From assembly GCF_036960985.1 (NCBI RefSeq), contig NZ_JBALWD010000016.1:3998-67997 (forward strand): a stretch of 64,000 nucleotides of DNA. Reading direction: 5' to 3'. The DNA is from Sneathiella sp. Its GTDB lineage: Bacteria; Pseudomonadota; Alphaproteobacteria; Sneathiellales; Sneathiellaceae. Made by a program: the position numbers and the translations under genes. This document shows positions 5,416 to 32,870 of this stretch, piece by piece (positions within the stretch are counted from its first letter, which is position 1; every line of letters starts with the position of its first letter). A model generated the notes under the pieces. That model had not been told where the DNA came from. It was given only the letters and a program-made list of their open reading frames with translations, and ran no database searches.

Positions 5416-6279
5416 CTACAATCCCATTTGGCGCAGAATTGCCAGGACCAGCGGGTCGTCTGGATCATGTAGCCTGTTTGTTATGTCAAAATGGTTATCC
5501 GTGCGCAGCGCCATATACTCACAAGAGAGCTCGGCCTTTCTGCATTTTTCCGTGAAATCCTGCGACTGGCGCAAAAAAGAGCCCGATTCCCCGCCGCCGA
5601 CCGCGCAAATAACCGGACAGGCGCAGTGCAGTTCCAGGTTTTGCGGGCTGTTGGCCAATGCCTCTTCTTTCGTTAAATGAATATCGTCCTGCAAATCAGT
5701 ATATCTGTGCGGCATAATATCGAACAGGCCACTTAACGGAGAGGCACCCTTTAATAAATTGGCGGGCATTCCGTACTGTTCCGCCCAGTCCGTTGCCATC
5801 ATCATGCCGGTCAAATGGCCGCCAGCGGAGTGGCCGGACAGAAACAGTAAGTCAGGATCTCCGTTATAGTCGGAAATATTCTCGTAGATCCATTTCAGTG
5901 CCTGCCGCATCTGGTCGACAATATCCGGTATCGTGACGGCGGGACATAAGTCATAATTTGGTAGAACAACCGTCGCGCCGGCGTTGTTAAATACGGGCGC
6001 AATCTCACTGTACAATGCCTTGTCCCAGCCGCGCCAATAACCACCATGGATAAAAATGAAAACCGGGGCCCCGGTGGCTGCGGCTGGAAAAATGTCGACA
6101 GTTTGCAGACTTGAGGATCCATAGACGACATCAATATGGCCGAGGCCTTCCTCGCGTGCCCGCGCACTCCGGATACCGGCATTCTCCTTATAATCTGCCA
6201 TGTTGGAAACCGTACGGCTCGGTAGGTACTGCACGTTTAGGGCTTCTATTTCGTCCTTATTGAGATTATCATATCCCAT
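5416..6279 (-). CDS. Alpha/beta hydrolase, arylformamidase (kynurenine formamidase)-like esterase
   Basis: HGGYW oxyanion motif, GHSAG nucleophile, C-terminal HF. Confidence 0.85.
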   Translation of the reverse strand: MGYDNLNKDEIEALNVQYLPSRTVSNMADYKENAGIRSARAREEGLGHIDVVYGSSSLQTVDIFPAAATGAPVFIFIHGGYWRGWDKALYSEIAPVFNNAGATVVLPNYDLCPAVTIPDIVDQMRQALKWIYENISDYNGDPDLLFLSGHSAGGHLTGMMMATDWAEQYGMPANLLKGASPLSGLFDIMPHRYTDLQDDIHLTKEEALANSPQNLELHCACPVICAVGGGESGSFLRQSQDFTEKCRKAELSCEYMALRTDNHFDITNRLHDPDDPLVLAILRQMGL

Positions 6280-6418
6280 TATATTCTCTTTATTGGTTTG
6301 AGGATTAATTATAGTATTGCATATTTATTGGAGCGGAGGCAATTTCGCAAATCTACCATTTTGACATTATTTTCAGGATTTAAATCTTGTTGTTTACGCT
6401 ACGTTTTATTGTCGGCGA

Positions 6419-6434
6419 TTAAGGCCTCATTAAC
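6419..6434 (+). promoter_or_regulatory. Putative CtrA binding box (TTAA-N7-TTAAC)
   Basis: TTAAGGCCTCATTAAC matches the full consensus; about 93 bp upstream of the TAXI start. Confidence 0.6.
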
Positions 6435-6526
6435 TCAAACCCACTATCTTTGGTTGCGAATAAGAGATCACCTGAAAAATCAAAGGCAGTTCGGACTTCA
6501 GAGCTCGTCAAAGTTGGGAAAGTAAT

Positions 6527-7546
6527 ATGCGTTCAAAATCAGTCATCGGTGCGGGAATTTTTCTTGCAGTAACGTTTATGATGACAGGAGCTTTGGCTGT
6601 TGAAAGCAATATCTTTCGAATTGGAACAGGCGGGATCAGTGGGACATATTATCCAGTCGGTCAGGCGATAGCGACGATGATTTCAAATCCTCTCGACAAA
6701 AAAGAATGTGGCGATATACCCTGTGGTGTCTCTGGTTTACTGGCTGTAGGGCAGGCCTCTAATGGATCTGTTGCAAATATCGCAGGTATCCAATCAGGCC
6801 AAATCGAAAGTGGTTTTTCGCAATCAGATATAGCTCATTGGGCACGGACTGGAACCGGTTTCTATAACGGAGAAGTGCCAAACACAAACATTATGGCTTT
6901 TGCCAGTCTGTATACAGAAAGTATCCATCTGGCCGTGCGTCAAGATTCAGGTATTAAATCGATTTATGACTTGGTCGGAAAACGTGTGTCACTTGACGAT
7001 CCAGGATCTGGAACCCTTGTCGATACGCGCATTATTTTGAATGCATACGGTGTTTCCGAGGCGGATATGGATGTTCAATATGTCAAGGCATCGGAAGCCA
7101 TAAAGAAAATGAAGGCTGATCAACTGGATGCGTTTTTTGTGATCGCAGGGTTTCCGTCGAAAGCCATTACCGATTTGAGCAATGACACTCAAATCTCCTT
7201 GATAGATATTGACGGTGATGCTGCTTCGAGAATTACACGTGACAATGAGTTCTTTTCTGAGCAAATCATACCGGCCGGGACATATCAAAATATCGATGAT
7301 GTGCAAACGCTAGGTGTTGGCGCCTTGTGGGTTGTAAATAAAAATGTTAGCACGGAACGGGCCTACAAAATCACCAGAAAATTCTGGGAGAGTTTACCGG
7401 ATTTCAAAAAATTTGGGGGACATCCTAAATTATCAAAAATTTCTCTTGAGACCGCGTTTCAGTCAATGAGCGTGCCGTTGCACCCGGGAGCTCGAAAATA
7501 TTATGAGGAAACTGGGCTTTTGAACGAAAAAATATTGCGGAATTAG
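6527..7546 (+). CDS. TAXI-family TRAP solute-binding protein (BCSP31-like)
   Basis: IGTGGISGTYYPVG, SNGSVANI, LYTESIHL, DAFFVIAGFP, PLHPGARKYY. Confidence 0.93.
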   Translation: MRSKSVIGAGIFLAVTFMMTGALAVESNIFRIGTGGISGTYYPVGQAIATMISNPLDKKECGDIPCGVSGLLAVGQASNGSVANIAGIQSGQIESGFSQSDIAHWARTGTGFYNGEVPNTNIMAFASLYTESIHLAVRQDSGIKSIYDLVGKRVSLDDPGSGTLVDTRIILNAYGVSEADMDVQYVKASEAIKKMKADQLDAFFVIAGFPSKAITDLSNDTQISLIDIDGDAASRITRDNEFFSEQIIPAGTYQNIDDVQTLGVGALWVVNKNVSTERAYKITRKFWESLPDFKKFGGHPKLSKISLETAFQSMSVPLHPGARKYYEETGLLNEKILRN

Positions 7547-7556
7547 GGCCAGATTA

Positions 7557-9371
7557 ATGATTAAAGCCTGGCTTTCAAAGCTCAACGAAAAAATCGAATC
7601 TAAAAATATTCCTGAATGGAACAATGCCTATGTTGCGGGTATTTTTTGCCTGTCATTGTTTGTGATAGCGACGATTACTTACGTACAAGTTACGTTGTCG
7701 AAAATCGAGGAATCCGTTCCGTTACAGATTGTGGCTCAGGAGCAAGCGGTCGACGACATAATTGATCAGTTCGCCGTCGCCAATAATGCCCTGGTCTTGG
7801 CCCAGCTTGCTGAAGGTCAAAAGCGGATGGAATATATCGATCTTGCACGGAAAAAAATCCAACAGGTACACGCTGCTTTGGAAAAAGAACGTATCCAGTT
7901 CGGTTTTGATAACCTTATCGGCACGGCGGCAATCTATGCGGTCATACAGCCGGCAACATTTGATGTTCAAAACTGGCTTGAAAAGGGGATCAGTGGCTTG
8001 CCGCCTGAAGCATTGGTCGTGCTTGAAACGGCTTCAGTCCGATCGCGCGCCGCAATTGATGAAGCTGAAAATTTACACAATCAAGTAACGGAAACAGCCT
8101 CAAATCTATTGGCGATGCAAGCGGAAAAGATCAATGCGTTTCGCGGCATTATGATCCTTGTTCTATTCCTTCTAGCCGGACTTGCAACAGTCCTGACTTA
8201 CTATATCTACAATAGGTGGTTGGCCAGCCGCGAGCTGGAAAGAAGTGAGCTAAAACATCGACGTATTTACGAGAATGCGACCGAAGGTATTTTTCAGGTA
8301 AATATGAATGGCACGTTTATCGATACTAATCCCGCTATGGCCACTATGCTTGGCTATAGTTCATCGTCGGAGATGGTGGAGAATGTTAAATCTTTCATCG
8401 ACGAAATTTATCTGGATGTCGAGGTCGCTGAAAAACACCTGATGCTGCTGACCAAGGGTCAATATCTAATTGACGAAATCTATCAGTGGCGGCGTAAAGA
8501 TGGATCGTTTATTTGGGGGGCGCTTAACGCCCATGCCGTTTATGATAAAAAAGGCGCCTTGTTGCATGTCGAAGGAACCTTGACGGATATGAATGCGCGG
8601 GTGCGCGCAGAACTGAATTTACGCAAAGCCAAAGAATTGGCCGAACTGGCTAATCGTGCCAAGTCCGAATTTCTGGCAAACATGAGTCATGAACTTCGAA
8701 CACCGCTGAATGCCGTAATTGGGTTTTCGGAAATTTTGCAGTCTGAAGCTTTCGGGCCTTTGGGACATGCAAACTATAAAGACTACTCAAATGATATTCA
8801 TGCAGCCGGTAAGCATTTGTTGGATGTGATCAACGATGTTCTCGATGTTGCCAAGATTGAGGCGGGGCAACTCAATCTGTCCGAAAGAAATATGGATCTG
8901 TCGGCAACGGTTACCTCTTGTATTCGCATGCTCTCCGTGCGGGCCTTCGACGCCGGCGTCAAATTGAGCTCCGATATTCCGTCAGATATGCCAGGCTTCC
9001 TGGGAGATGAAACACGCATAAAGCAGATCCTTGTAAATATAGCCTCGAACGCAATCAAATTCACCGACAAGGGTGGATCCGTCACGGTTGCCGCAGAGAT
9101 CGGGGACGGCGGCGGAATAACCTTGCGCGTGACCGACACAGGTATCGGCATCGCGAAGAAAGACATTCCCCGGGTTCTTGATCGTTTCGGGCAGGTTCAA
9201 ACCACCTATGCCCGCAACAACGATGGAACGGGTCTCGGGTTGACGTTAGTTCAGATGTTGGTCGAAGTGCATGGTGGCAAGTTCACCTTGGAAAGCGAAG
9301 TCGATGTCGGAACGGAATGCAGTATTCACTTTCCACCCGAGCGCACGGTCCGCTTGGCAGCGGCTGTCTAA
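7557..9371 (+). CDS. Membrane-bound PAS sensor histidine kinase, PleC/DivJ-like
   Basis: Two TM segments around a helical periplasmic domain, PAS, H-box FLANMSHELRTPLNAVIGFSE, N box NAIKFT, DTGIGI, GTGLGL. Confidence 0.92.
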   Translation: MIKAWLSKLNEKIESKNIPEWNNAYVAGIFCLSLFVIATITYVQVTLSKIEESVPLQIVAQEQAVDDIIDQFAVANNALVLAQLAEGQKRMEYIDLARKKIQQVHAALEKERIQFGFDNLIGTAAIYAVIQPATFDVQNWLEKGISGLPPEALVVLETASVRSRAAIDEAENLHNQVTETASNLLAMQAEKINAFRGIMILVLFLLAGLATVLTYYIYNRWLASRELERSELKHRRIYENATEGIFQVNMNGTFIDTNPAMATMLGYSSSSEMVENVKSFIDEIYLDVEVAEKHLMLLTKGQYLIDEIYQWRRKDGSFIWGALNAHAVYDKKGALLHVEGTLTDMNARVRAELNLRKAKELAELANRAKSEFLANMSHELRTPLNAVIGFSEILQSEAFGPLGHANYKDYSNDIHAAGKHLLDVINDVLDVAKIEAGQLNLSERNMDLSATVTSCIRMLSVRAFDAGVKLSSDIPSDMPGFLGDETRIKQILVNIASNAIKFTDKGGSVTVAAEIGDGGGITLRVTDTGIGIAKKDIPRVLDRFGQVQTTYARNNDGTGLGLTLVQMLVEVHGGKFTLESEVDVGTECSIHFPPERTVRLAAAV

Positions 9372-9994
9372 CCCACACGCCAAAAATCTTTTAGAATGTC
9401 CGCTTGCAGCAAAGCCAATCCGACCGCAACAACCATCAAGATAGCCAAGGTTACGTTGATGATGCGTAAGGCTTTCGTCGATTTGACCAATCGCCGTAAG
9501 ACATTCCCGCCATAACACCAAATTGAATTAAGCGGAAAACTGACCGCCGCAAAAATGATCATGATCGTTGCGATTTGCCCCACGTAACTCGCGGAGGGGG
9601 AGACGAACTGGGAATAAGCCGCGATGATGGTGACCCAGGCCTTCGGATTGAGAGGGTGTAAAATGACACCCGCCAAATAGCCCGGATGACTGGATCTGTC
9701 TTCCACGTGCGGGTTGGCAGTTGCCACTTTATAGGCCAAGTAAATGATATATAAAACCGACGCGAACAAGAAGACAATCTGTAGGGTGGGGAAGGTTATA
9801 AAAAGCGATCCTAGTCCAAGCGCGACGGCAAGGCAGACCAACAGAAACCCTGAAATACTTCCCACCAGAAAGGGTAGAGAACGACGGTAGCCAAAACTGG
9901 CCCCGGACGCCATCAAGGCCATATTGACCGGTCCTGGCGAGCCGACCATGGAGACTGCGAACATGGCAATCAGAGCAATTTTTCCGAGTTCCAT
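9368..9994 (-). CDS. LysE family exporter
   Basis: SPGPVNM, YIIYLAYKVA, LNPKAW. Confidence 0.9.
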   Translation of the reverse strand: MELGKIALIAMFAVSMVGSPGPVNMALMASGASFGYRRSLPFLVGSISGFLLVCLAVALGLGSLFITFPTLQIVFLFASVLYIIYLAYKVATANPHVEDRSSHPGYLAGVILHPLNPKAWVTIIAAYSQFVSPSASYVGQIATIMIIFAAVSFPLNSIWCYGGNVLRRLVKSTKALRIINVTLAILMVVAVGLALLQADILKDFWRVG

Positions 9995-10014
9995 CGGGCT
10001 TCTTTCTGAAATAG

Positions 10015-10084
10015 GACAATTTACATTGTCTCAATATTGTCATAAAATTGTCCCAGTCAATTCCAATATTGTCACAGTGACAAT
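10015..10084. promoter_or_regulatory. Array of ATTGTC/GACAAT repeats, probable operator of the MocR regulator
   Basis: GACAAT at 10015 and 10079; ATTGTC at 10025, 10036, 10047 and 10068, all within the 102-bp divergent intergenic gap. Confidence 0.7.
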
Positions 10085-10096
10085 TTTAAGGCTGTT

Positions 10097-11482
10097 ATGC
10101 GAAAATTTGAAGAGATTGCCGAAACCCTTGTCGACCTTATTAAGCAGGGAAAATTGAAGGCAGGAGACCGGCTGCCCAGTCATCGCGATCTGGCCTATGA
10201 CTATAAGTGTAGCGTTGGCACTGCCAGCCGGGCGTATGGGGAATTGGAGCGGCGCGGATATACCTATGGCAAAGTCGGGCAGGGTACTTTTATTTATGGT
10301 ACAGAGGCCGATGAAGCGGCTATTGGCAAAGGCGTGTTTTTTCCGCGAGAAAGCTGGGTCGATGGCCAACGCGGTATCGTCAATCTGTCCAAGAACAGTT
10401 ACTATCACAAAGATACGGATGCCCGTATGCGCGACGCCTTTCTGCGGCTGTCCATGGGCAATGAACCAACCCAGTATCTGGAGTATTTCGACAGCCGCGG
10501 TCGCCCCCGTGATCGGGTCATTGCCGCGAGCTGGATAGGCAAACAAATCGAGAAGGTCGATCCGGAGAATATCATTATTACACAGGGCGCTCAGCCGGGT
10601 CTATACACGGCCATGGCCACATTGGCTAATCCGGGTGACGTGGTGGCGACAGAAGCCTTTGGATATCCAGGCATCCGGGCGGCGGCTTACGAACTTGATT
10701 TACGGCTGACGCCCATTGCCATGGATAATTTTGGCCTTATCCCCGAAGAATTCGAGGCAATCTGCAAACGCGGATCGGTCAAGTTGCTGGTGACGATGCC
10801 GACCGGCCATAATCCAACCGGCACAACGCAACCGCTGGAACGTCGGTTAGAAATCCTTGAGATTGCCCGGGCTCACAATGTCCTGATTGTCGAGGATGCG
10901 GTTTATGCGCCGCTGCAGGATGTCTTTCCGCCAGCTTACATAGACCTCGATCCGGAACGGGCCTTGTATATTACGAGCTTGTCCAAGGTGTTCAGCCCCG
11001 GCTTGCGGGTTGGGTACATCGTTGCCCCGCCTAATCTTGTGCCGCGATTGGCAACAAAAGTCACAGCCATCAACTGGATGACGTCGGCCATTACTCTGGA
11101 CATGTCGAATTTCTTCCTGCAAGGCGGGATCGTTGACGCGCAAGCGGTGGACTTGGTGAAAACATGTTGGCGCCGGGAACGTCGGGCGATAGATATTCTC
11201 GCACCCTGGATCGCACATGTGCATCATGCAAAACGGTCGCCGTTGCCGCATTTGTGGGTTGAACTCCCTGCAGATCAGAATATGGCCGAGTTTGTTGCTT
11301 CGGCGCGGCGAGAAAATATCGTTATTATTGCCGGCGATAGCTTTGCCATGTCCAAAACCGTCTCCGTCAATCATATCCGGGTCTGCCTGATGTCGGAACC
11401 CGACGAGCAGCGTCTTGAAAAAGCGTTGAAACGTCTGGCGACCTTGTTGGCCGAACAAACATCTCCGGTTATGGTCATTTAA
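10097..11482 (+). CDS. MocR/GabR-family regulator (GntR wHTH + PLP aminotransferase domain)
   Basis: GDRLPSHRDLA...TASRAYGEL wHTH; VEDAVY; SLSKVFSPGLRVG PLP lysine. Confidence 0.93.
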   Translation: MRKFEEIAETLVDLIKQGKLKAGDRLPSHRDLAYDYKCSVGTASRAYGELERRGYTYGKVGQGTFIYGTEADEAAIGKGVFFPRESWVDGQRGIVNLSKNSYYHKDTDARMRDAFLRLSMGNEPTQYLEYFDSRGRPRDRVIAASWIGKQIEKVDPENIIITQGAQPGLYTAMATLANPGDVVATEAFGYPGIRAAAYELDLRLTPIAMDNFGLIPEEFEAICKRGSVKLLVTMPTGHNPTGTTQPLERRLEILEIARAHNVLIVEDAVYAPLQDVFPPAYIDLDPERALYITSLSKVFSPGLRVGYIVAPPNLVPRLATKVTAINWMTSAITLDMSNFFLQGGIVDAQAVDLVKTCWRRERRAIDILAPWIAHVHHAKRSPLPHLWVELPADQNMAEFVASARRENIVIIAGDSFAMSKTVSVNHIRVCLMSEPDEQRLEKALKRLATLLAEQTSPVMVI

Positions 11483-11606
11483 ATCAAGATTTTGTACCAA
11501 TGACGAGTTGGATCTTTATTGAAATTGGGTTCTCGTGATTTTGCTGGTTCCCAGCGTTCTTTATTACTGGCCGAAGTTCAGAAAATAACACGCCCTAAAC
11601 ATGTTT

Positions 11607-12017
11607 CTATGAGTTTTGATCTTCCGACGGCAACATGTCGGGGCGAGGCTTGCTGGGGCGGGTTAGTACAAATCCAGCTCCAAATCCCATAAGGGCGAGC
11701 ATGGCGACAAGTCCATACCAAGGCGTGCTGGAAAAAGCGATGACCAATATTGCACTAACTGTCATGGTTCCGACGGCGACAATTTTTGCGCGAAGTGGGA
11801 TGACGCCGTATTTAGACCAATCTTGAAGCGGCGGACCAAAAACCTTGTGGTTATAAAGCCAATCATGGAACCGTTCAGAACTTTGCGAGAATGCCCAAAG
11901 AGAAATGAGTAAAAACGGCGTTGTTGGCAGGACAGGCAGAAAAATTCCGATGGCTCCGACGGCAACGAAAAACCAGCCGACTAGAAGTAGGAGTATCCTC
12001 TTGCTTGGTTGCATCAT
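11607..12017 (-). CDS. YbaN/DUF454 family membrane protein
   Basis: GIFLPVLPTTPFLL...SSERFHDWLYNHKVFGP. Confidence 0.9.
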   Translation of the reverse strand: MMQPSKRILLLLVGWFFVAVGAIGIFLPVLPTTPFLLISLWAFSQSSERFHDWLYNHKVFGPPLQDWSKYGVIPLRAKIVAVGTMTVSAILVIAFSSTPWYGLVAMLALMGFGAGFVLTRPSKPRPDMLPSEDQNS

Positions 12018-12486
12018 TAAATTTATTGCCATTAATTCGAGAATCGGGATTGTCAATGTCCGGGGTAAAATCCAGCTTGTGAAGGATATACCTTAAACAA
12101 TGAAGACATGTTGAAAAAAACCGCTTTTTTTGTCTTTCAAAGGTATTTTTGAGAAATAGCGACCGGTTTGACAGCTTTCAATTTAGTCAAAAGCCTTCGT
12201 TTACCCTACTGTGCGGACCTAAACCGTTATAATATTTGACTATTTTGCCTATTTTTTAAGCAGGGTGGGACAGGTTAGTATTTTTGGCATTTTGCGAGAC
12301 CAAAATACGGAAATTTGACTCAAAATCGCAATTTTTTGTTTGATCTCACCTGTGTTCTGGGCTTTCATGAAGACTGCAAGAATGCATTTAAGCGCCTTCA
12401 CTGCAACATTGTCGGGATCTAATAAAGTAAAAACAAAGAACCGGACATACATTGGGACGTCTTTAATTTCCTTAAGGGAGGAAAAA

Positions 12487-13731
12487 TTGAAAATTAAATC
12501 CATTATTTTGGCCAGTGCCGTCGTATCGGCAATCTCGGCTTTCAGCGCGCAAGCGGCTGATACAATCAAGATCGCCTTTATTGATCCGCTTTCCGGACCG
12601 TTTGCCGCAACAGGAACAAATGGCCTGAGAGAATTCGAATTTGCTGCTGATACACTTGTAAATGCCAAAGGCGGCGTTTTGGGCGGACAACAATTCGTTA
12701 TCGTGCCTTTTGATAATAAAATTAGCCCCAAAGAAAGCCTCATTCAGCTGAAACGGGCAATCGGTGAAGGCATCCAGTATATTGCGCAAGGAAACAGCTC
12801 CGGTGTTGCAAATGCACTGACGGATGCGATTAAAAAGCACAATAAACGGAATCCAGATAAGCCGGTTCTTTTCCTGAACTATTCCGCGGTTGATCCTGCA
12901 TTGACCAATGCAAAATGCAACTTCTGGCATTTCCGTTTCGACGCCAATGCCGATATCAAGATGAATGCATTGACGGACGTTATTGCGCAAGAAGACGGGA
13001 TCAAGAAAATCTACTTGATTGGACAGGATTACTCCTTCGGTAAAGCGGTTGCTGCAGCGGCGGTTAAATTCCTCGGAGAGAAACGCCCTGACATCGAAAT
13101 CGTCGGGAACGAACTTCACCCAATCGGTAAAGTGAAAGACTTTACACCCTATGCAACGAAAATTCGGGCCTCTGGCGCGGATGCGGTTATTACAGGTAAC
13201 TGGGGTGCGGACATGGTTGGTCTGGGTAAAGCCATTGGCGACACCGGACTTGATGTGCCAATTTACACTTATTATGCGGCTAAAAATGGTATTACAAAAA
13301 CCATTGGTGCCTCTGGTAAAAACAAAATCCGTCTTGTTCACGAAGGAAATGACAATCCTCCTTTGAATGAAGAGATCACGGCATATTACACTGGCTTTAA
13401 AGCTAAGTATCCTGACATGGACATCACACAGTACCGGATTGCCAACACAATTGGCATGCTGGCAGGTGCGATGGAAACAGCAGGGACAACTGATCCAGTA
13501 GCCGTTGCCAGAGCTCTTGAAGGTATGGAATTCACAACGTTGAATGGTGATAAAATGACCATGCGGGCTGAAGACCATCAGGCAATCCAGCCAATTCGGA
13601 TTTCTGTTCATACGGACGAAAACGTTACGTTTGATGCAGATAACTCAGGATATGGTTTGGTAACAGAATCAACAATTACAGCTGCTGATTCATCTTTGCC
13701 ATCAACTTGTAAAATGGAACGTCCTAGCTAA
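12487..13731 (+). CDS. Branched-chain amino acid (LIV-type) ABC transporter substrate-binding protein
   Basis: Signal peptide, IAFIDPLSGPFA, DFTPYATKI; TTG 12487 follows RBS GGGAGG. Confidence 0.9.
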   Translation: MKIKSIILASAVVSAISAFSAQAADTIKIAFIDPLSGPFAATGTNGLREFEFAADTLVNAKGGVLGGQQFVIVPFDNKISPKESLIQLKRAIGEGIQYIAQGNSSGVANALTDAIKKHNKRNPDKPVLFLNYSAVDPALTNAKCNFWHFRFDANADIKMNALTDVIAQEDGIKKIYLIGQDYSFGKAVAAAAVKFLGEKRPDIEIVGNELHPIGKVKDFTPYATKIRASGADAVITGNWGADMVGLGKAIGDTGLDVPIYTYYAAKNGITKTIGASGKNKIRLVHEGNDNPPLNEEITAYYTGFKAKYPDMDITQYRIANTIGMLAGAMETAGTTDPVAVARALEGMEFTTLNGDKMTMRAEDHQAIQPIRISVHTDENVTFDADNSGYGLVTESTITAADSSLPSTCKMERPS

Positions 13732-13757
13732 ACGGGACGCTGTTGCAAGTCTAATAG

Positions 13758-13788
13758 TGCTGGTCGGATGTTTCCGGCCAGCATTTCT
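13758..13788 (+). terminator. Intercistronic hairpin after the binding-protein gene
   Basis: TGCTGGTCGGA-tgtt-TCCGGCCAGCA followed by TTTCT. Confidence 0.55.
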
Positions 13789-13843
13789 CAGCCGGGCGTA
13801 AGATCTGGTTTCCAAGAATGTGTGTAATTAAGAGATTCAACCA

Positions 13844-14794
13844 ATGTTTGAATTGATCTTCTTTTCCCTGTTAAATGGGATTGTCACGGGACTACTGCTG
13901 TTCATGCTCGCAAGTGGTCTAACCCTTATTTTCTCGATGATGGGCGTCTTGAATTTCGCGCATGCCAGCTTCTATATGCTTGGCGCGTATCTGGCGTATA
14001 CTATCAGTATATATTTGGGGTTCTGGGTGGGCCTCATTGTCGCTCCGATATTGGTCGGCCTTATTGGCGCCGTCGTTGAGCGATACGGCCTTCGCTATGT
14101 CCATCGGTGGGGGCATGTGGCGGAGCTTATTTTCACCTTTGGTCTTGCCTTCCTTATTGAAGAAGTGGTGCAATTCATTTGGGGTAAAGATACAAAAGCG
14201 TATCTCGAGCCAGAAGTCCTGCAATTTCCGCTCTTTACGTTCTTCGGGCAAAACTTTCCGGCGTACAAAGCATTTATGCTGCTAATTTCCATCTCTATCT
14301 TTATCATGCTGTTGTTGATCCTGACTAAGTCACGTGTCGGTTTGATCATCCAGGCCGCAATTCATAAGCCGAATATGACGGCGATGCTCGGCCATAATGT
14401 GCCGCTGGTCTTCATGGGCGTGTTTGGAGTTGGCTGTGCGCTTGCAGGTGTTGCCGGCGTGATTGCCGGGCCAGCGCTGGGAACTTTCCCTGGTATGGCC
14501 GTTGTACTTGGCAGCATTGTTTTTGTGATCGTGGTAATTGGCGGTCTTGGGTCCCTGACCGGTGCTTTCGTTGCCTCCTTGATAATTGGCTTGTTGCAAA
14601 CATTTGCCATTGCCCTTGATTATTCAGTGAATGACCTTTTGACCGCCTTGAACATATCGTTTGATGCAGACAGTGCATTGCGCGATTTATGGTCACTCTC
14701 ATTGCCGCAGATTGCACCAATCCTGCCGTATCTCCTTCTGGTTCTGGTCCTGATATTCCGACCGACCGGCTTGTTTGGGAACCGTGAGACATGA
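13844..14794 (+). CDS. LIV-type ABC permease (LivH-like)
   Basis: GLTLIFSMMGVLNFAH, VVIGGLGS. Confidence 0.92.
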   Translation: MFELIFFSLLNGIVTGLLLFMLASGLTLIFSMMGVLNFAHASFYMLGAYLAYTISIYLGFWVGLIVAPILVGLIGAVVERYGLRYVHRWGHVAELIFTFGLAFLIEEVVQFIWGKDTKAYLEPEVLQFPLFTFFGQNFPAYKAFMLLISISIFIMLLLILTKSRVGLIIQAAIHKPNMTAMLGHNVPLVFMGVFGVGCALAGVAGVIAGPALGTFPGMAVVLGSIVFVIVVIGGLGSLTGAFVASLIIGLLQTFAIALDYSVNDLLTALNISFDADSALRDLWSLSLPQIAPILPYLLLVLVLIFRPTGLFGNRET

Positions 14795-16089
14795 GTGAAA
14801 TAGCAAAAACAGCGACTGCTGAAAAATCAGTGCCGTTCGTAAAACGTTACGCTGTCTGGATCGGGTTTTTCGTCATGCTTATGGTGATGCCGTATGTTTT
14901 CTCTTCAAACATCGGCTTATACACCATGAATTTGATGGGTATTTTTATCATTTTTGCCTTGTCCTATAATATGTTGCTTGGGCAAGGTGGTATGCTCTCT
15001 TTTGGTCATGCAGTGTATTTTGGACTAGGTGGTTTTATGTCCGTGCATTTCATGAACTACATAGAAGATGGTACTTTCTTCTTTCCCATGTGGTTGCTCC
15101 CAATATTTGGTGGTCTGATCGGATTGGTTTTTGCCATCATCATCGGCAGCTTCTCGACCCGGAAAGCCGGAACCGTTTTCGCCATGATATCTCTAGGAGT
15201 TGGTGAGCTAATGGCAGCCAGTTCGCTCATCTTCGTTGCCTTCTTTGGTGGCGAGGAGGGCGTAAGCGGCGACCGGACAATGGGCCCGCCGCTGTTTGGC
15301 TTTGATTTCGCCCAGGATGTTCAAGTATATTACCTGATAGCCGCCTGGGTCTTCGTCTCGGTTTTCCTGATGTATCTGTTTTCGCGAACACCGGCCGGAC
15401 GCATGGCCAATGCCGTCCGTGACAATGCGGAGCGGGCCGAGTTTGTCGGTTATAGCCAACGAAAAGTCAGATTTGTCTCCTTCTGCATTTCCGGGTTCTT
15501 CGCGGGTATCGCGGGTGGGTTATTTGCTATTAACTTTGAAATCGTCACAGAAGAAAACTTGAACGCCTTGACATCCGGCGTTGTTCTGTTGATGGCTTTC
15601 ATCGGCGGTGTTGGCTTCTTTATCGGACCGATTATCGGGGCCGTGGTTTTCACCTTGCTGCAAAGTATCTTGAGCAACTATACGGATATCTGGCAGCTCT
15701 ATGTGGGCGTCTTGTTCCTGCTGACGGTGATGTACGCGCCGCATGGACTAACCGGTATCATGATGATGCATACGCCGGCGTTCAAGATGAACCGCTTGGG
15801 AACTTTGTTAGTGCCATATCTTCGCATTGGTATTCCGACAATTTCCTTTATGGCCGGGGTCGCCGGTTTCCTGGAGATGATCCATCACGTACGAAGTGCA
15901 CCTGTGGATGAGACCATGATGAGCCTGATGGGCATTGAGTTTGATACCCATTCGATCATGCCGTGGGTGGTTATTTTCCTGTTGGCAGTAGTTGGCGGAT
16001 ATCTGGTGAAAACACAAGTGAGTCAGTTTAGAGATGCCTGGGATACGGCAAACGATCCAAATGCTGATACGGGAGGAGCCTCGTCATGA
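14791..16089 (+). CDS. LIV-type ABC permease (LivM-like)
   Basis: LSYNMLLGQGGMLSFGHA, AVRDNAERA. Confidence 0.92.
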   Translation: MSEIAKTATAEKSVPFVKRYAVWIGFFVMLMVMPYVFSSNIGLYTMNLMGIFIIFALSYNMLLGQGGMLSFGHAVYFGLGGFMSVHFMNYIEDGTFFFPMWLLPIFGGLIGLVFAIIIGSFSTRKAGTVFAMISLGVGELMAASSLIFVAFFGGEEGVSGDRTMGPPLFGFDFAQDVQVYYLIAAWVFVSVFLMYLFSRTPAGRMANAVRDNAERAEFVGYSQRKVRFVSFCISGFFAGIAGGLFAINFEIVTEENLNALTSGVVLLMAFIGGVGFFIGPIIGAVVFTLLQSILSNYTDIWQLYVGVLFLLTVMYAPHGLTGIMMMHTPAFKMNRLGTLLVPYLRIGIPTISFMAGVAGFLEMIHHVRSAPVDETMMSLMGIEFDTHSIMPWVVIFLLAVVGGYLVKTQVSQFRDAWDTANDPNADTGGASS

Positions 16090-16838
16090 GTACGGCAATC
16101 GAGCTTCGAAACCTGCGCAAGAGTTTTGGTCCTACCGAAATTATCCGCGGTGTGGATTTGCAAATCGAAAAAGGCGAGCGTCATGCGATTATTGGACCAA
16201 ACGGTGCTGGAAAATCGACCCTTTTTCACCTGATTAGCGGCCGGTATAATCTGAGTGGTGGTTCGGTACATCTGCATGGTGAGGATATCAGCAATCTGCC
16301 ACCTTACGAGATTTATCGTAAAGGGCTTTCGCGCAGCTTCCAGGTCACCAATATATTTCCAAACATGAGTGTGTTTGAGAATGTCCGCTGTGGATTGATG
16401 TGGTCGAAGAATTATAAATATTCTTTCTGGCATCTGGTGGATCGGGAACATGACCTCAACAATAAAACCTTGCAGGTAATCGAGGAAATCGGCCTCACGT
16501 CCCGCCAACATATTCCGGCCGGTGTTCTGACTTATGCGGAGCAACGGGCGCTGGAAATTGGTATTTCCGCGGCGGGTGGTGCCGACGTCATTATGCTCGA
16601 TGAACCAACGGCCGGTATGAGCCACTCAGAAACTGATCAAGCCATTGAATTAATCCGCAAAATTACCGAGGGCAAGACGCTGGTGATGGTGGAGCATGAC
16701 ATGGGGGTTGTGTTTGACGTGGCCGACCGGATCTCCGTATTGGTGTATGGCGAAATTATCGCCTGTGACACACCAGAAAACATAAGAAATAGTAAAGCTG
16801 TGCAAGAAGCCTATCTTGGCGCGGAGGCAGAGGACTGA
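16086..16838 (+). CDS. LIV-type ABC ATPase (LivG-like)
   Basis: GPNGAGKST, RSFQVTNIF, LDEPTAG. Confidence 0.93.
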   Translation: MSTAIELRNLRKSFGPTEIIRGVDLQIEKGERHAIIGPNGAGKSTLFHLISGRYNLSGGSVHLHGEDISNLPPYEIYRKGLSRSFQVTNIFPNMSVFENVRCGLMWSKNYKYSFWHLVDREHDLNNKTLQVIEEIGLTSRQHIPAGVLTYAEQRALEIGISAAGGADVIMLDEPTAGMSHSETDQAIELIRKITEGKTLVMVEHDMGVVFDVADRISVLVYGEIIACDTPENIRNSKAVQEAYLGAEAED

Positions 16839-31094: not shown

Positions 31095-32870
31095 TTATCC
31101 TGTTTTGCTAATCTTTGTCATGCTGAAGACAATTTTCCCGGTACACCCAGCATGACCACCACTAGTTTCCTGCGCTTCAGAATGAAAGGTTTTCTGGTCC
31201 TGATCCAGCCTAAATCTTTCGCTCCATTGCCAGTTACTGCCGCCACCCGGGTAGTTGACTGCGAGCACGATTTTACCGTTTATGGTTTCGCTATTGACAT
31301 ACAAGCCCTCGCGTCCGGCCCAGAAAGTAAAAGACTGCTGCGGTGCGGTGAAGCTTAAATCAAAATTCCACAAATGAGATCGGGAGCAATAAGCTGAATT
31401 ACCGACCGAGGCTTCATATTTAGCCGTAACGCGCCACGTTCCCCTCGTTTTATAGCCCGCCGGATTTTGCGCCGTTGCCGTAACTTCTGACGAACGGGCC
31501 AGGGCTTCATTGAGGTTTAGAATGGCGACAGAAGCGTATTTGCTATCCAGATGCTCCTTTAAAAACTGGCCGAGTGCGGTTGGATCCTGCTTGTCTTCAA
31601 GGTTGCGCCAGGCAATATCCGCGCTAGAGATCGATGCGCTGCTTTGCTTTTTCATGGTGAAGACAATTTTCCCGATGCATCCAGCATGACCGCCACCAGC
31701 TTCACGAGCTTCAGAGAAGAAGTTTTTTTGATCCTGATCCAGCCTAAATCTTTCGCTCCATTGCCAGTTACTACCGCCTTTTGGATAGTTCAATGCGAGA
31801 ACGAGCCGGCCGTTCTCTATAGTACTATTGACATACAGGCCTTCTGATCCGGTCCAGAACGTATAGGATTGCGGTGTGTTGGATAGGGTGAGATCGAAAT
31901 CCCAAACATGTGGTTTGGCACAGTAGGCCGATTTCCCCGAAACCGCTTCATATTGTGCAGCTACGCGCCATCTTCCTGTCGTATCATAGTCATTACCCGT
32001 GGAATTTCTTGCGGCAGCGCTAGACGAAAACGCCAACCCAGGCCTGTCCTGTTTCGTCATGAGAATATCTACCACACCGACACAATTTGACGCCGACATG
32101 GATCCCGAGCTGAATTTAGGTTCAGACGTTAACCTGACTTGCGGTTTGTCCAGTTTTAGTCGTTGGGTCAGTTGCCAGTCGCCGCCAGCATCGGGAACCG
32201 AGAAAACCAGTTCCGAGTAATCCGCGGAATGTTCCCCAGTGACATTTAATTGAACGCTATTACTCCAGTAAGTTTCCGATATGCGGCCGCGCCTACTGTA
32301 GTCGAGCTGGAAATTCCAGCTGCGTTGTTTCGGGCAAATGGAGGCGTTCGTGGCTGTGGCCGAATACGTCGCGGAGACATTCCAGATGCCGGCCGGATCA
32401 AAGGCTGCGGCTTCGGCTTTGGGAACAGCTGCAAGTGGCACCGCCGCTGTTGGATTTGCTTTTTGTTCCGCGGCGACATAACCCAGGTTATTCCCGATGC
32501 TGATTTCCAATTCGCGGACCCAGGTATTGTAGCCGCGGTGAATTCGAGCACCCTGGCTCGCCAAATTGCGGCTCGACACGTAATTTATGTCAAAGGATTG
32601 GTTGGTATAAACCACGTCAACCACCGCCTCATGCTTACCTCTAACACCGAGTGTAGCGCGGATTACACCCGGGCTCCGTTTTTCCATTACCCAGCCTTTC
32701 TCAGCACCCGCGGCGAGAATTCCGTCGCCGATCGCCGACAATGGTGCCGTCTCTAATCCCGGCGGTACCGCGACCGAAGAGGGGATATAGATAGGTTGGA
32801 TGCGCGGCTGACAGGCGCCGATGAAGATGACAAATGTAATCAAGGAGATAAGACGGAACGGGATTTTCAC
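31095..32870 (-). CDS. Lipoprotein of unknown function with three copies of a ~115-aa Cys/Trp domain
   Basis: Lipobox FIGAC; repeats at aa ~157-274, ~295-409 and ~473-586. Confidence 0.8.
   Translation of the reverse strand: MKIPFRLISLITFVIFIGACQPRIQPIYIPSSVAVPPGLETAPLSAIGDGILAAGAEKGWVMEKRSPGVIRATLGVRGKHEAVVDVVYTNQSFDINYVSSRNLASQGARIHRGYNTWVRELEISIGNNLGYVAAEQKANPTAAVPLAAVPKAEAAAFDPAGIWNVSATYSATATNASICPKQRSWNFQLDYSRRGRISETYWSNSVQLNVTGEHSADYSELVFSVPDAGGDWQLTQRLKLDKPQVRLTSEPKFSSGSMSASNCVGVVDILMTKQDRPGLAFSSSAAARNSTGNDYDTTGRWRVAAQYEAVSGKSAYCAKPHVWDFDLTLSNTPQSYTFWTGSEGLYVNSTIENGRLVLALNYPKGGSNWQWSERFRLDQDQKNFFSEAREAGGGHAGCIGKIVFTMKKQSSASISSADIAWRNLEDKQDPTALGQFLKEHLDSKYASVAILNLNEALARSSEVTATAQNPAGYKTRGTWRVTAKYEASVGNSAYCSRSHLWNFDLSFTAPQQSFTFWAGREGLYVNSETINGKIVLAVNYPGGGSNWQWSERFRLDQDQKTFHSEAQETSGGHAGCTGKIVFSMTKISKTG
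31113..31988. repeat. Intragenic direct repeat, period 534 bp, including a 41-bp perfect match
   Basis: TCCTGATCCAGCCTAAATCTTTCGCTCCATTGCCAGTTACT at 31198-31238 and 31732-31772, within longer degenerate similarity. Confidence 0.9.

Follow-up and report, generated by a model that had tools for sequence, protein, structure and literature searches.

A 64-kb stretch of DNA from Sneathiella sp. (Alphaproteobacteria), called the window here and serving at its full length as the frame for the nucleotide coordinates of the pair, contains a gene for a TAXI-family periplasmic solute-binding protein directly upstream of a gene for an orphan sensor histidine kinase. We propose, with a probability of about 0.7, that TAXI and a signaling protein carrying a predicted four-helix bundle in the periplasm form a dedicated sensing cassette, in which the TAXI protein, of a family that normally supplies a transporter, would most likely act as a nutrient co-receptor. 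Some 60 further bacterial loci show such a pairing. Comparative genomics strongly supports such a role for TAXI as a putative receptor read by the periplasmic domain of the kinase. Wherever the upstream DNA can be read, TAXI coding sequence precedes this periplasmic domain, regardless of which output domain follows. Since TAXI lies directly upstream of every gene with this sensor domain that we examined, in unrelated lineages, the pairing occurs far more often than chance would allow. The parts of the pair, whose two genes are presumed to be co-transcribed, are as follows.

6280..6526, + strand: intergenic region 5' of the TAXI gene, presumed from reading the sequence to be the promoter region
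6527..7546, + strand: TAXI-family periplasmic solute-binding protein, 339 residues (TIGR02122 5.4e-90, PF16868 2.3e-79)
6527-6598, + strand: segment with the appearance of a Sec signal peptide, TAXI residues 1-24
7547..7556, + strand: 10-nt spacer from the TAXI stop codon to the kinase start codon
7557..9371, + strand: orphan sensor histidine kinase, 604 residues, with first transmembrane segment (TM1), periplasmic four-helix bundle (predicted), second transmembrane segment (TM2), PAS, HisKA, and HATPase_c
7626..7694, + strand: TM1, kinase residues ~24-46, hydrophobic, part of a continuous predicted helix 20-84
7695..8144, + strand: TAXI-associated periplasmic sensor domain, residues ~47-196, ~150 residues, a four-helix bundle in the AlphaFold2 (AF2) model
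8145..8213, + strand: TM2, residues ~197-219, continuous with bundle helix 4 and a cytoplasmic linker helix (AF2 helix 153-234)
8253..8594, + strand: cytoplasmic PAS domain, residues 233-346 (PF00989 1.5e-10)
8658..8867, + strand: HisKA, the dimerization and histidine phosphotransfer (DHp) domain, residues 368-437 (PF00512 1.6e-19)
8688-8690, + strand: phospho-acceptor His378, within HisKA/DHp
9003..9341, + strand: HATPase_c catalytic domain, residues 483-595 (PF02518 3.7e-27)

A preliminary description of this DNA had noted a TAXI gene followed 10 bp later by a PAS histidine kinase with two transmembrane segments, and both open reading frames (ORFs) are as it described. The helical periplasmic domain of ~150 residues that it reported is borne out by the AF2 model, which is all-helical between the two hydrophobic segments. 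Its statement that neither a permease nor a response regulator adjoins the pair extends to the full 64 kb: four TAXI-permease probes, one of them confirmed as PF06808 (3.6e-104), gave zero matches to a DctM-type TRAP permease in the window, and no receiver-domain (response regulator) protein is encoded there. No HAMP domain was matched by Pfam in the kinase.

Co-occurrence of TAXI and the sensor domain

How widespread is the pairing? Anchored on TAXI, a survey of 80 species-level genome loci with TAXI relatives at 43-59% identity found the canonical fused permease, with 12-16 transmembrane segments, directly downstream in most of them. At 8 loci outside Sneathiella, from Gammaproteobacteria, Ectothiorhodospiraceae, Rhodospirillaceae, and MarineAlpha10 metagenome-assembled genomes (MAGs), the gene after TAXI opens with a transmembrane/periplasmic/transmembrane unit that matches kinase residues ~30-215 (phmmer, 1e-20 to 1e-28). 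The outputs behind this unit are GGDEF-EAL, PAS-GGDEF-EAL, or a PAS-less HisKA-HATPase. The reciprocal survey, in which metagenome contigs were scanned with a motif drawn solely from the sensor domain, F[DN][ND][LV][ILV]G[ATV][SA]AI, returned 48 loci. A TAXI gene stands directly upstream on the same strand in 45 of these, and the other three, with less than 450 nt of upstream sequence, still encode TAXI fragments there, so that TAXI coding sequence adjoins the sensor gene in this orientation at 48/48 loci. The gaps between the two genes mostly range from -4 to +73 nt, and ATGA overlaps are frequent.

Kinase residues 1-235 served as query for an exhaustive phmmer search of 1.84 billion representative proteins, which delineated a small family of 159 representative clusters at E values up to 1e-3, 86 of them at up to 1e-10. 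Among the 150 matches listed, the sensor domain is N-terminal in every one; 74 run into a histidine kinase, in some cases a hybrid with a receiver domain, 33 run into GGDEF with or without EAL, and the rest include PAS_7 with an adenylate/guanylate cyclase (Guanylate_cyc), PAS with HD_5 (HD-GYP type), and PAS-GAF. The gene neighborhoods of six representatives were examined, and all five that proved informative have TAXI directly upstream: those of the cyclase, the HD-GYP type protein, a 1539-residue multi-PAS GGDEF-EAL protein, a hybrid kinase, and a match at the edge of detection (E 4e-5). The gene-neighborhood survey called for in the preliminary description thus finds the pairing conserved, in the metagenome loci, the eight genome loci, and the individual look-ups alike. 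No third conserved gene accompanies the cassette, in which further synteny is restricted to single lineages, and in loci L001-L136 the 5 kb around each sensor gene are free of receiver-domain ORFs.

Several loci depart from the simple two-gene arrangement. In L118 (1-470), what adjoins the sensor gene is no more than an N-terminal piece of TAXI (profile positions 8-79), which may reflect a deletion or an assembly chimera. At L137:1757-3913, a sensor/PAS_7/adenylate-guanylate cyclase gene follows two TAXI genes in tandem, of which one has diverged (137 bits against the clade profile). In a MarineAlpha10 lineage the sensor (229 residues) and the HisKA-HATPase part (398 residues) are encoded by separate overlapping ORFs (L014:6005-7887, L114:1249-1938), and representatives of 229 residues exist as well (P0160, P0170); a recurrent frameshift or a genuinely split gene could account for this. 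Three unrelated contigs carry an HNH endonuclease gene directly upstream of an orphan TAXI that has neither permease nor sensor (L007:7301-7879, L008:7253-7837, L013:5464-6045), and the nearest TAXI relatives examined outside Sneathiella are such HNH-adjoining orphans.

Sensor domain, binding protein, and a model for signaling

The periplasmic domain matches no Pfam family at E values up to 10, and no NCBIfam family at up to 1, the curated four-helix-bundle sequence families of the 4HB_MCP/TarH type included. The AF2 model places helices at residues 20-84, 88-115, 123-143, and 153-234, corresponding to TM1, a periplasmic four-helix bundle, and TM2 with its linker helix. Foldseek aligned this model with the sensor domains of Tsr, PcaY, KinB, QseE, and Adeh_2942 at target-normalized TM-scores of 0.55-0.66 and root-mean-square deviations of 3.6-5.7. 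The E values for four-helix-bundle sensors, Tsr and Tar among them, all exceed 0.02, and the likeness therefore holds at the level of the fold only. We conclude that the domain is predicted to be a Tar/Tsr-like four-helix bundle.

Residue conservation was measured over 184 family sequences. D136 and R162 are invariant; W140, G144, and P132 are conserved in at least 98%, and R112, Y115, L54, and P55 in about 90%. The Sneathiella kinase carries the near-invariant P55, R112, P132, D136, W140, G144, and R162 of the family, with phenylalanine at position 115 and valine at position 54. Two distant kinase orthologs, L003 and L004, show 35-37% identity in the N-terminal half; in both, the kinase-LysE-MocR gene order is preserved and no TAXI gene lies upstream. 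Both have retained the PAS-histidine kinase part (E 1e-103 or better) and have lost R112, G122, P132, W140, G144, and P150; L003 further lacks D136 and R162. On sequence comparison, these two proteins tie the conserved residues of the sensor to the presence of TAXI. In L004, a 345-residue secreted protein without a Pfam family (1008-2045) occupies the place of the TAXI gene.

The TAXI ORF itself scores far above the family cut-offs, at 301.5 bits against TIGR02122 (cut-off 84.35) and 267.5 bits against PF16868 (cut-off 27). Among proteins of solved structure, its best relatives are the Thermus Glu/Gln-binding protein TtGluBP (1us4/1us5) and Vibrio cholerae GluP (VcGluP; 8s4j). Mapping the ligand-binding residues of VcGluP (PMC11574862) yields Y41, S81, Q99, Y129, E131, G162, and T163 as candidate pocket residues. 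Five of these retain the VcGluP residue (Y45, S75, Q93, E125, and G156 there correspond to Y41, S81, Q99, E131, and G162), H123 and D157 are replaced by Y129 and T163, both as in the Thermus protein, and Y200 corresponds to V205. The residues that hold the alpha-amino-acid moiety in VcGluP and TtGluBP are kept (PMC11574862), and because of this retention a Glu/Gln-type alpha-amino acid is the probable ligand. The amino-acid or organic-acid cue envisaged earlier is plausible for the same reason. Few positions, Q76, F/Y113, and V270, separate sensor-linked from permease-linked TAXI proteins, too few for a docking surface on TAXI to be delimited.

In conjunction, these observations lead us to the following model. 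The TAXI protein would be exported to the periplasm and bind a small ligand, most likely a Glu/Gln-type alpha-amino acid. It would report its ligand state by docking onto the periplasmic four-helix bundle of the kinase, akin to the way maltose-binding protein acts with Tar, TorT with TorS, or NspS with MbaA. The ensuing conformational change may run through the continuous helix 4/TM2/linker helix to the PAS and DHp domains, shifting the balance between kinase and phosphatase activity towards an unlinked response regulator. The idea that TAXI has been repurposed as a receptor for the kinase, raised in the preliminary description, gains from the lineage-wide linkage, the exchange of outputs, and the loss of sensor residues where TAXI is missing, while docking as such, like the direction of regulation, is what the model would add.

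How does this arrangement compare with known systems? TorT and TorS mediate trimethylamine N-oxide sensing in Escherichia coli, where a partner with a binding-protein fold, not employed in transport, signals through the all-helical periplasmic domain of a kinase. The combination of a periplasmic binding protein with an all-helical sensor domain of a histidine kinase is common to both systems; TorT, however, belongs to another binding-protein family, and TorS is a hybrid kinase whose sensor forms a double bundle of larger size. TorS shares no sequence similarity with the sensor domain described here, and the NCBIfam TorS matches cover the catalytic core only. A TTT binding protein acts as co-sensor of a histidine kinase in BctC-BctE of Bordetella. 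In Bacillus subtilis, a TRAP DctP-type binding protein has this function in DctB-DctS-DctA (PMC12718363). Both of these latter cases resemble the proposed cassette in using a binding protein of a secondary-transporter family as a kinase co-sensor, but they involve other binding-protein families and other sensor domains, and in both the transporter that goes with the binding protein is what is regulated.

The GGDEF-EAL members of the sensor family find their counterpart in NspS-MbaA of V. cholerae and ScrB-ScrC of V. parahaemolyticus, where the gene for a binding protein adjoins that of a membrane GGDEF-EAL protein whose periplasmic domain reads it (reviewed in PMC8050422). The binding proteins in these systems resemble PotD or LuxP instead of TAXI, and their partners have unrelated periplasmic domains. 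Tar senses maltose via maltose-binding protein (PMC10443332). The periplasmic part of Tar on which the loaded protein docks is a four-helix bundle, the fold that the predicted structure resembles. Maltose-binding protein is, however, mainly an ATP-binding cassette (ABC) transport protein that is unlinked to tar, whereas the cassette is dedicated and its outputs are kinases and nucleotide cyclases, not chemoreceptors. Recruitment of TAXI to a partner other than a TRAP permease has a precedent in TAXI-GltS (Bordetella pertussis BP0403), recognized by gene context (PMC12344293), although GltS is a transporter and not a signaling protein.

Alternative explanations

Several points weigh against a dedicated sensing cassette. 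The AF2 model, built on a shallow and mostly Sneathiella alignment, is of moderate confidence (pLDDT 78, pTM 0.56). The invariant D136, R162, and W140 of the bundle, together with H/Y127, could just as well make up a binding site for a small molecule within the bundle itself. Given the absence of a response regulator from the window and from the vicinity of the sensor genes, gene context proposes no partner for the kinase. Finally, the pocket positions are essentially identical between sensor-linked and permease-linked members of the TAXI clade, and the protein could therefore also serve a permease encoded outside the window.

This last point leads to the best-surviving alternative, which we nevertheless consider unlikely. 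TAXI would mainly serve a fused DctQM permease elsewhere in the genome, and the adjacent kinase would regulate uptake or be co-regulated with it; the kinase may then use TAXI as a shared co-sensor, for which B. subtilis DctB provides a precedent (PMC12718363). Orphan TRAP binding proteins are also known (PMC12344293). In addition to the lack of a permease in the window, the ORF scan flagged none beside any sensor-linked TAXI, and the sensor-linked proteins cluster apart from the permease-linked ones in a neighbor-joining tree, a quick distance tree from a biased sample. The recurrence of the cassette with cyclase, HD-GYP, and GGDEF/EAL outputs, with no obvious tie to a transporter, likewise argues against a role mainly in uptake.

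It is also conceivable, with a still lower probability, that the bundle senses a small molecule itself via D136, R162, W140, and H127, and that TAXI, instead of carrying the signal, is an accessory such as a ligand buffer or scavenger, or a constitutive structural partner. Invariant polar residues do lie inside the bundle, many four-helix-bundle sensors bind ligands directly, and the Foldseek matches Tsr, Tar, and PcaY are ligand-bound structures. The strict co-occurrence with TAXI, and the decay of exactly these residues where TAXI is missing, speak against direct sensing and imply that the conserved residues of the bundle depend on TAXI. That the adjacency is inherited synteny or chance without functional coupling is very improbable: the pair is always present in Sneathiella, and its conservation there says little because the whole neighborhood (esterase, SnoaL, LysE, MocR, and ABC genes) is likewise syntenic, but loci in Gammaproteobacteria, Rhodospirillaceae, MarineAlpha10, Ectothiorhodospiraceae MAGs, and many metagenomes combine it with unrelated flanking genes and different outputs, and the 48-locus survey effectively refutes the idea.

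Kinase family, genomic setting, and relevance

Which pathway might the Sneathiella kinase feed? The DHp connector reads FGPLG...Y.DY..DI..AG.HLL.VINDVLD, and the pattern FGP...Y.EY..DI..SG.HLL..I.DILD is common to all TAXI-linked kinases of the different lineages. The preliminary description had assigned the kinase to the PleC/DivJ/PdhS type. PdhS is indeed the top NCBIfam match of the DHp domain alone, at 103.2 bits, in a virtual tie with TorS (101.5) and DivJ (101.4); the alignment to the PdhS model is ungapped over model positions 788-875, FGPLG connector included, whereas hybrid-kinase DHp domains from the PDB need a four-residue gap at the connector. Full-length scores fall far below the equivalog cut-offs, with 215 bits against DivJ (NF050805, cut-off 1000) and 205 bits against PdhS (NF041593, cut-off 2000). 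Comparisons of the catalytic core and the DHp domain with PDB and NCBIfam entries could not separate a PdhS/DivJ-type from a TorS-type assignment by score. The kinase resembles PleC, DivJ, and PdhS1/2 in its DHp sequence, which includes the four-residue FGPLG connector, and in being an orphan with no adjacent regulator. To our knowledge, no periplasmic sensor dependent on a binding protein has been reported for members of the PdhS family. As this family is defined by HisKA homology, with DivK and PleD as predicted targets (PMC7003649), membership of the kinase is possible, and so are DivK/PleD-type partners.

A link to the cell cycle of the PleC/DivJ kind is weakly supported. The outputs in the sensor family are generic signaling modules, comprising c-di-GMP, cyclic-nucleotide, and phosphorelay enzymes, and are not specifically devoted to the cell cycle; the coupling to development or the cell cycle put forward in the preliminary description is not established. 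The upstream region of the TAXI gene contains, 93 nt 5' of its start codon, the sequence TTAAGGCCTCATTAAC (6419-6434), the sole full match to the CtrA-box consensus TTAA-N7-TTAAC in the window, where 0.56 would be expected by chance. This box is absent upstream of TAXI in 12 other Sneathiella-type loci. We therefore regard it as probably a chance occurrence and rejected it as evidence of cell-cycle control.

The genes flanking the pair are both on the opposite strand, as had been pointed out before.

5416-6279, - strand: esterase gene
9368-9994, - strand: LysE-family exporter gene, with a MocR/GntR regulator beyond

The nearest relatives of the proteins in the window are from S. marina (86-88% identity). 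Across Sneathiella, the kinase is followed by a conserved series of genes for LysE (-), a MocR-type regulator (+), DUF454 (-), and Peripla_BP_6 with ABC transporter proteins (window 9368-16838). L003 keeps this arrangement in full, and L004, a short contig, its kinase/LysE/MocR core. The MocR protein of the window bears a resemblance to EhuR (374 bits, where the cut-off is 480). Over 6001-8000, which takes in TAXI and the first quarter of the kinase gene, G+C content falls to 0.44, compared with 0.49-0.52 in the kilobases on either side; it dips in a similar way at 12001-13000. Elsewhere in the window, a 591-residue ORF at 31095-32870 (-) has no Pfam match at E values up to 1e-5.

The TAXI-sensor cassette represents a variant of binding-protein-dependent signaling for which we found no published description, in a literature search that covered few subscription journals; the preliminary description likewise knew of no TAXI-PdhS module. 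TAXI goes unmentioned in the main review devoted to signal transduction by binding proteins (PMC8050422), and recent TAXI papers mention no kinases or diguanylate cyclases (PMC11574862, PMC12344293). A regulatory role of the V. cholerae TAXI protein GluP was examined in a 2025 study, and none was found (PMC12718363).

What would the cassette mean for the TAXI family? Most TAXI proteins are uncharacterized, and until now no role had been assigned to "orphan" TRAP binding proteins; on our reading, one TAXI clade would be assigned to signaling instead of transport. A sensor domain outside Pfam and NCBIfam links TAXI to histidine kinases, c-di-GMP enzymes, a nucleotide cyclase, and an HD-GYP protein. 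The system lends itself to testing, being compact: it consists of two genes, its ligand is probably an amino acid, and its conserved residues can be mutated. Through it one could study how a metabolite outside the cell may be converted into second-messenger or phosphorelay decisions in marine Alpha- and Gammaproteobacteria. Should the PdhS-like kinase act on DivK/PleD, an environmental input would be identified for a pathway whose signals are largely unknown. A further-reaching version, in which the new input domain solely reads TAXI and the Sneathiella kinase relays an extracellular amino-acid signal to DivK/PleD, is unlikely. Were it true, it would provide a direct nutrient input to the alphaproteobacterial CtrA circuit that governs the cell cycle and the motile-sessile switch, in parallel to the c-di-GMP enzymes driven by the same sensor in Gammaproteobacteria.

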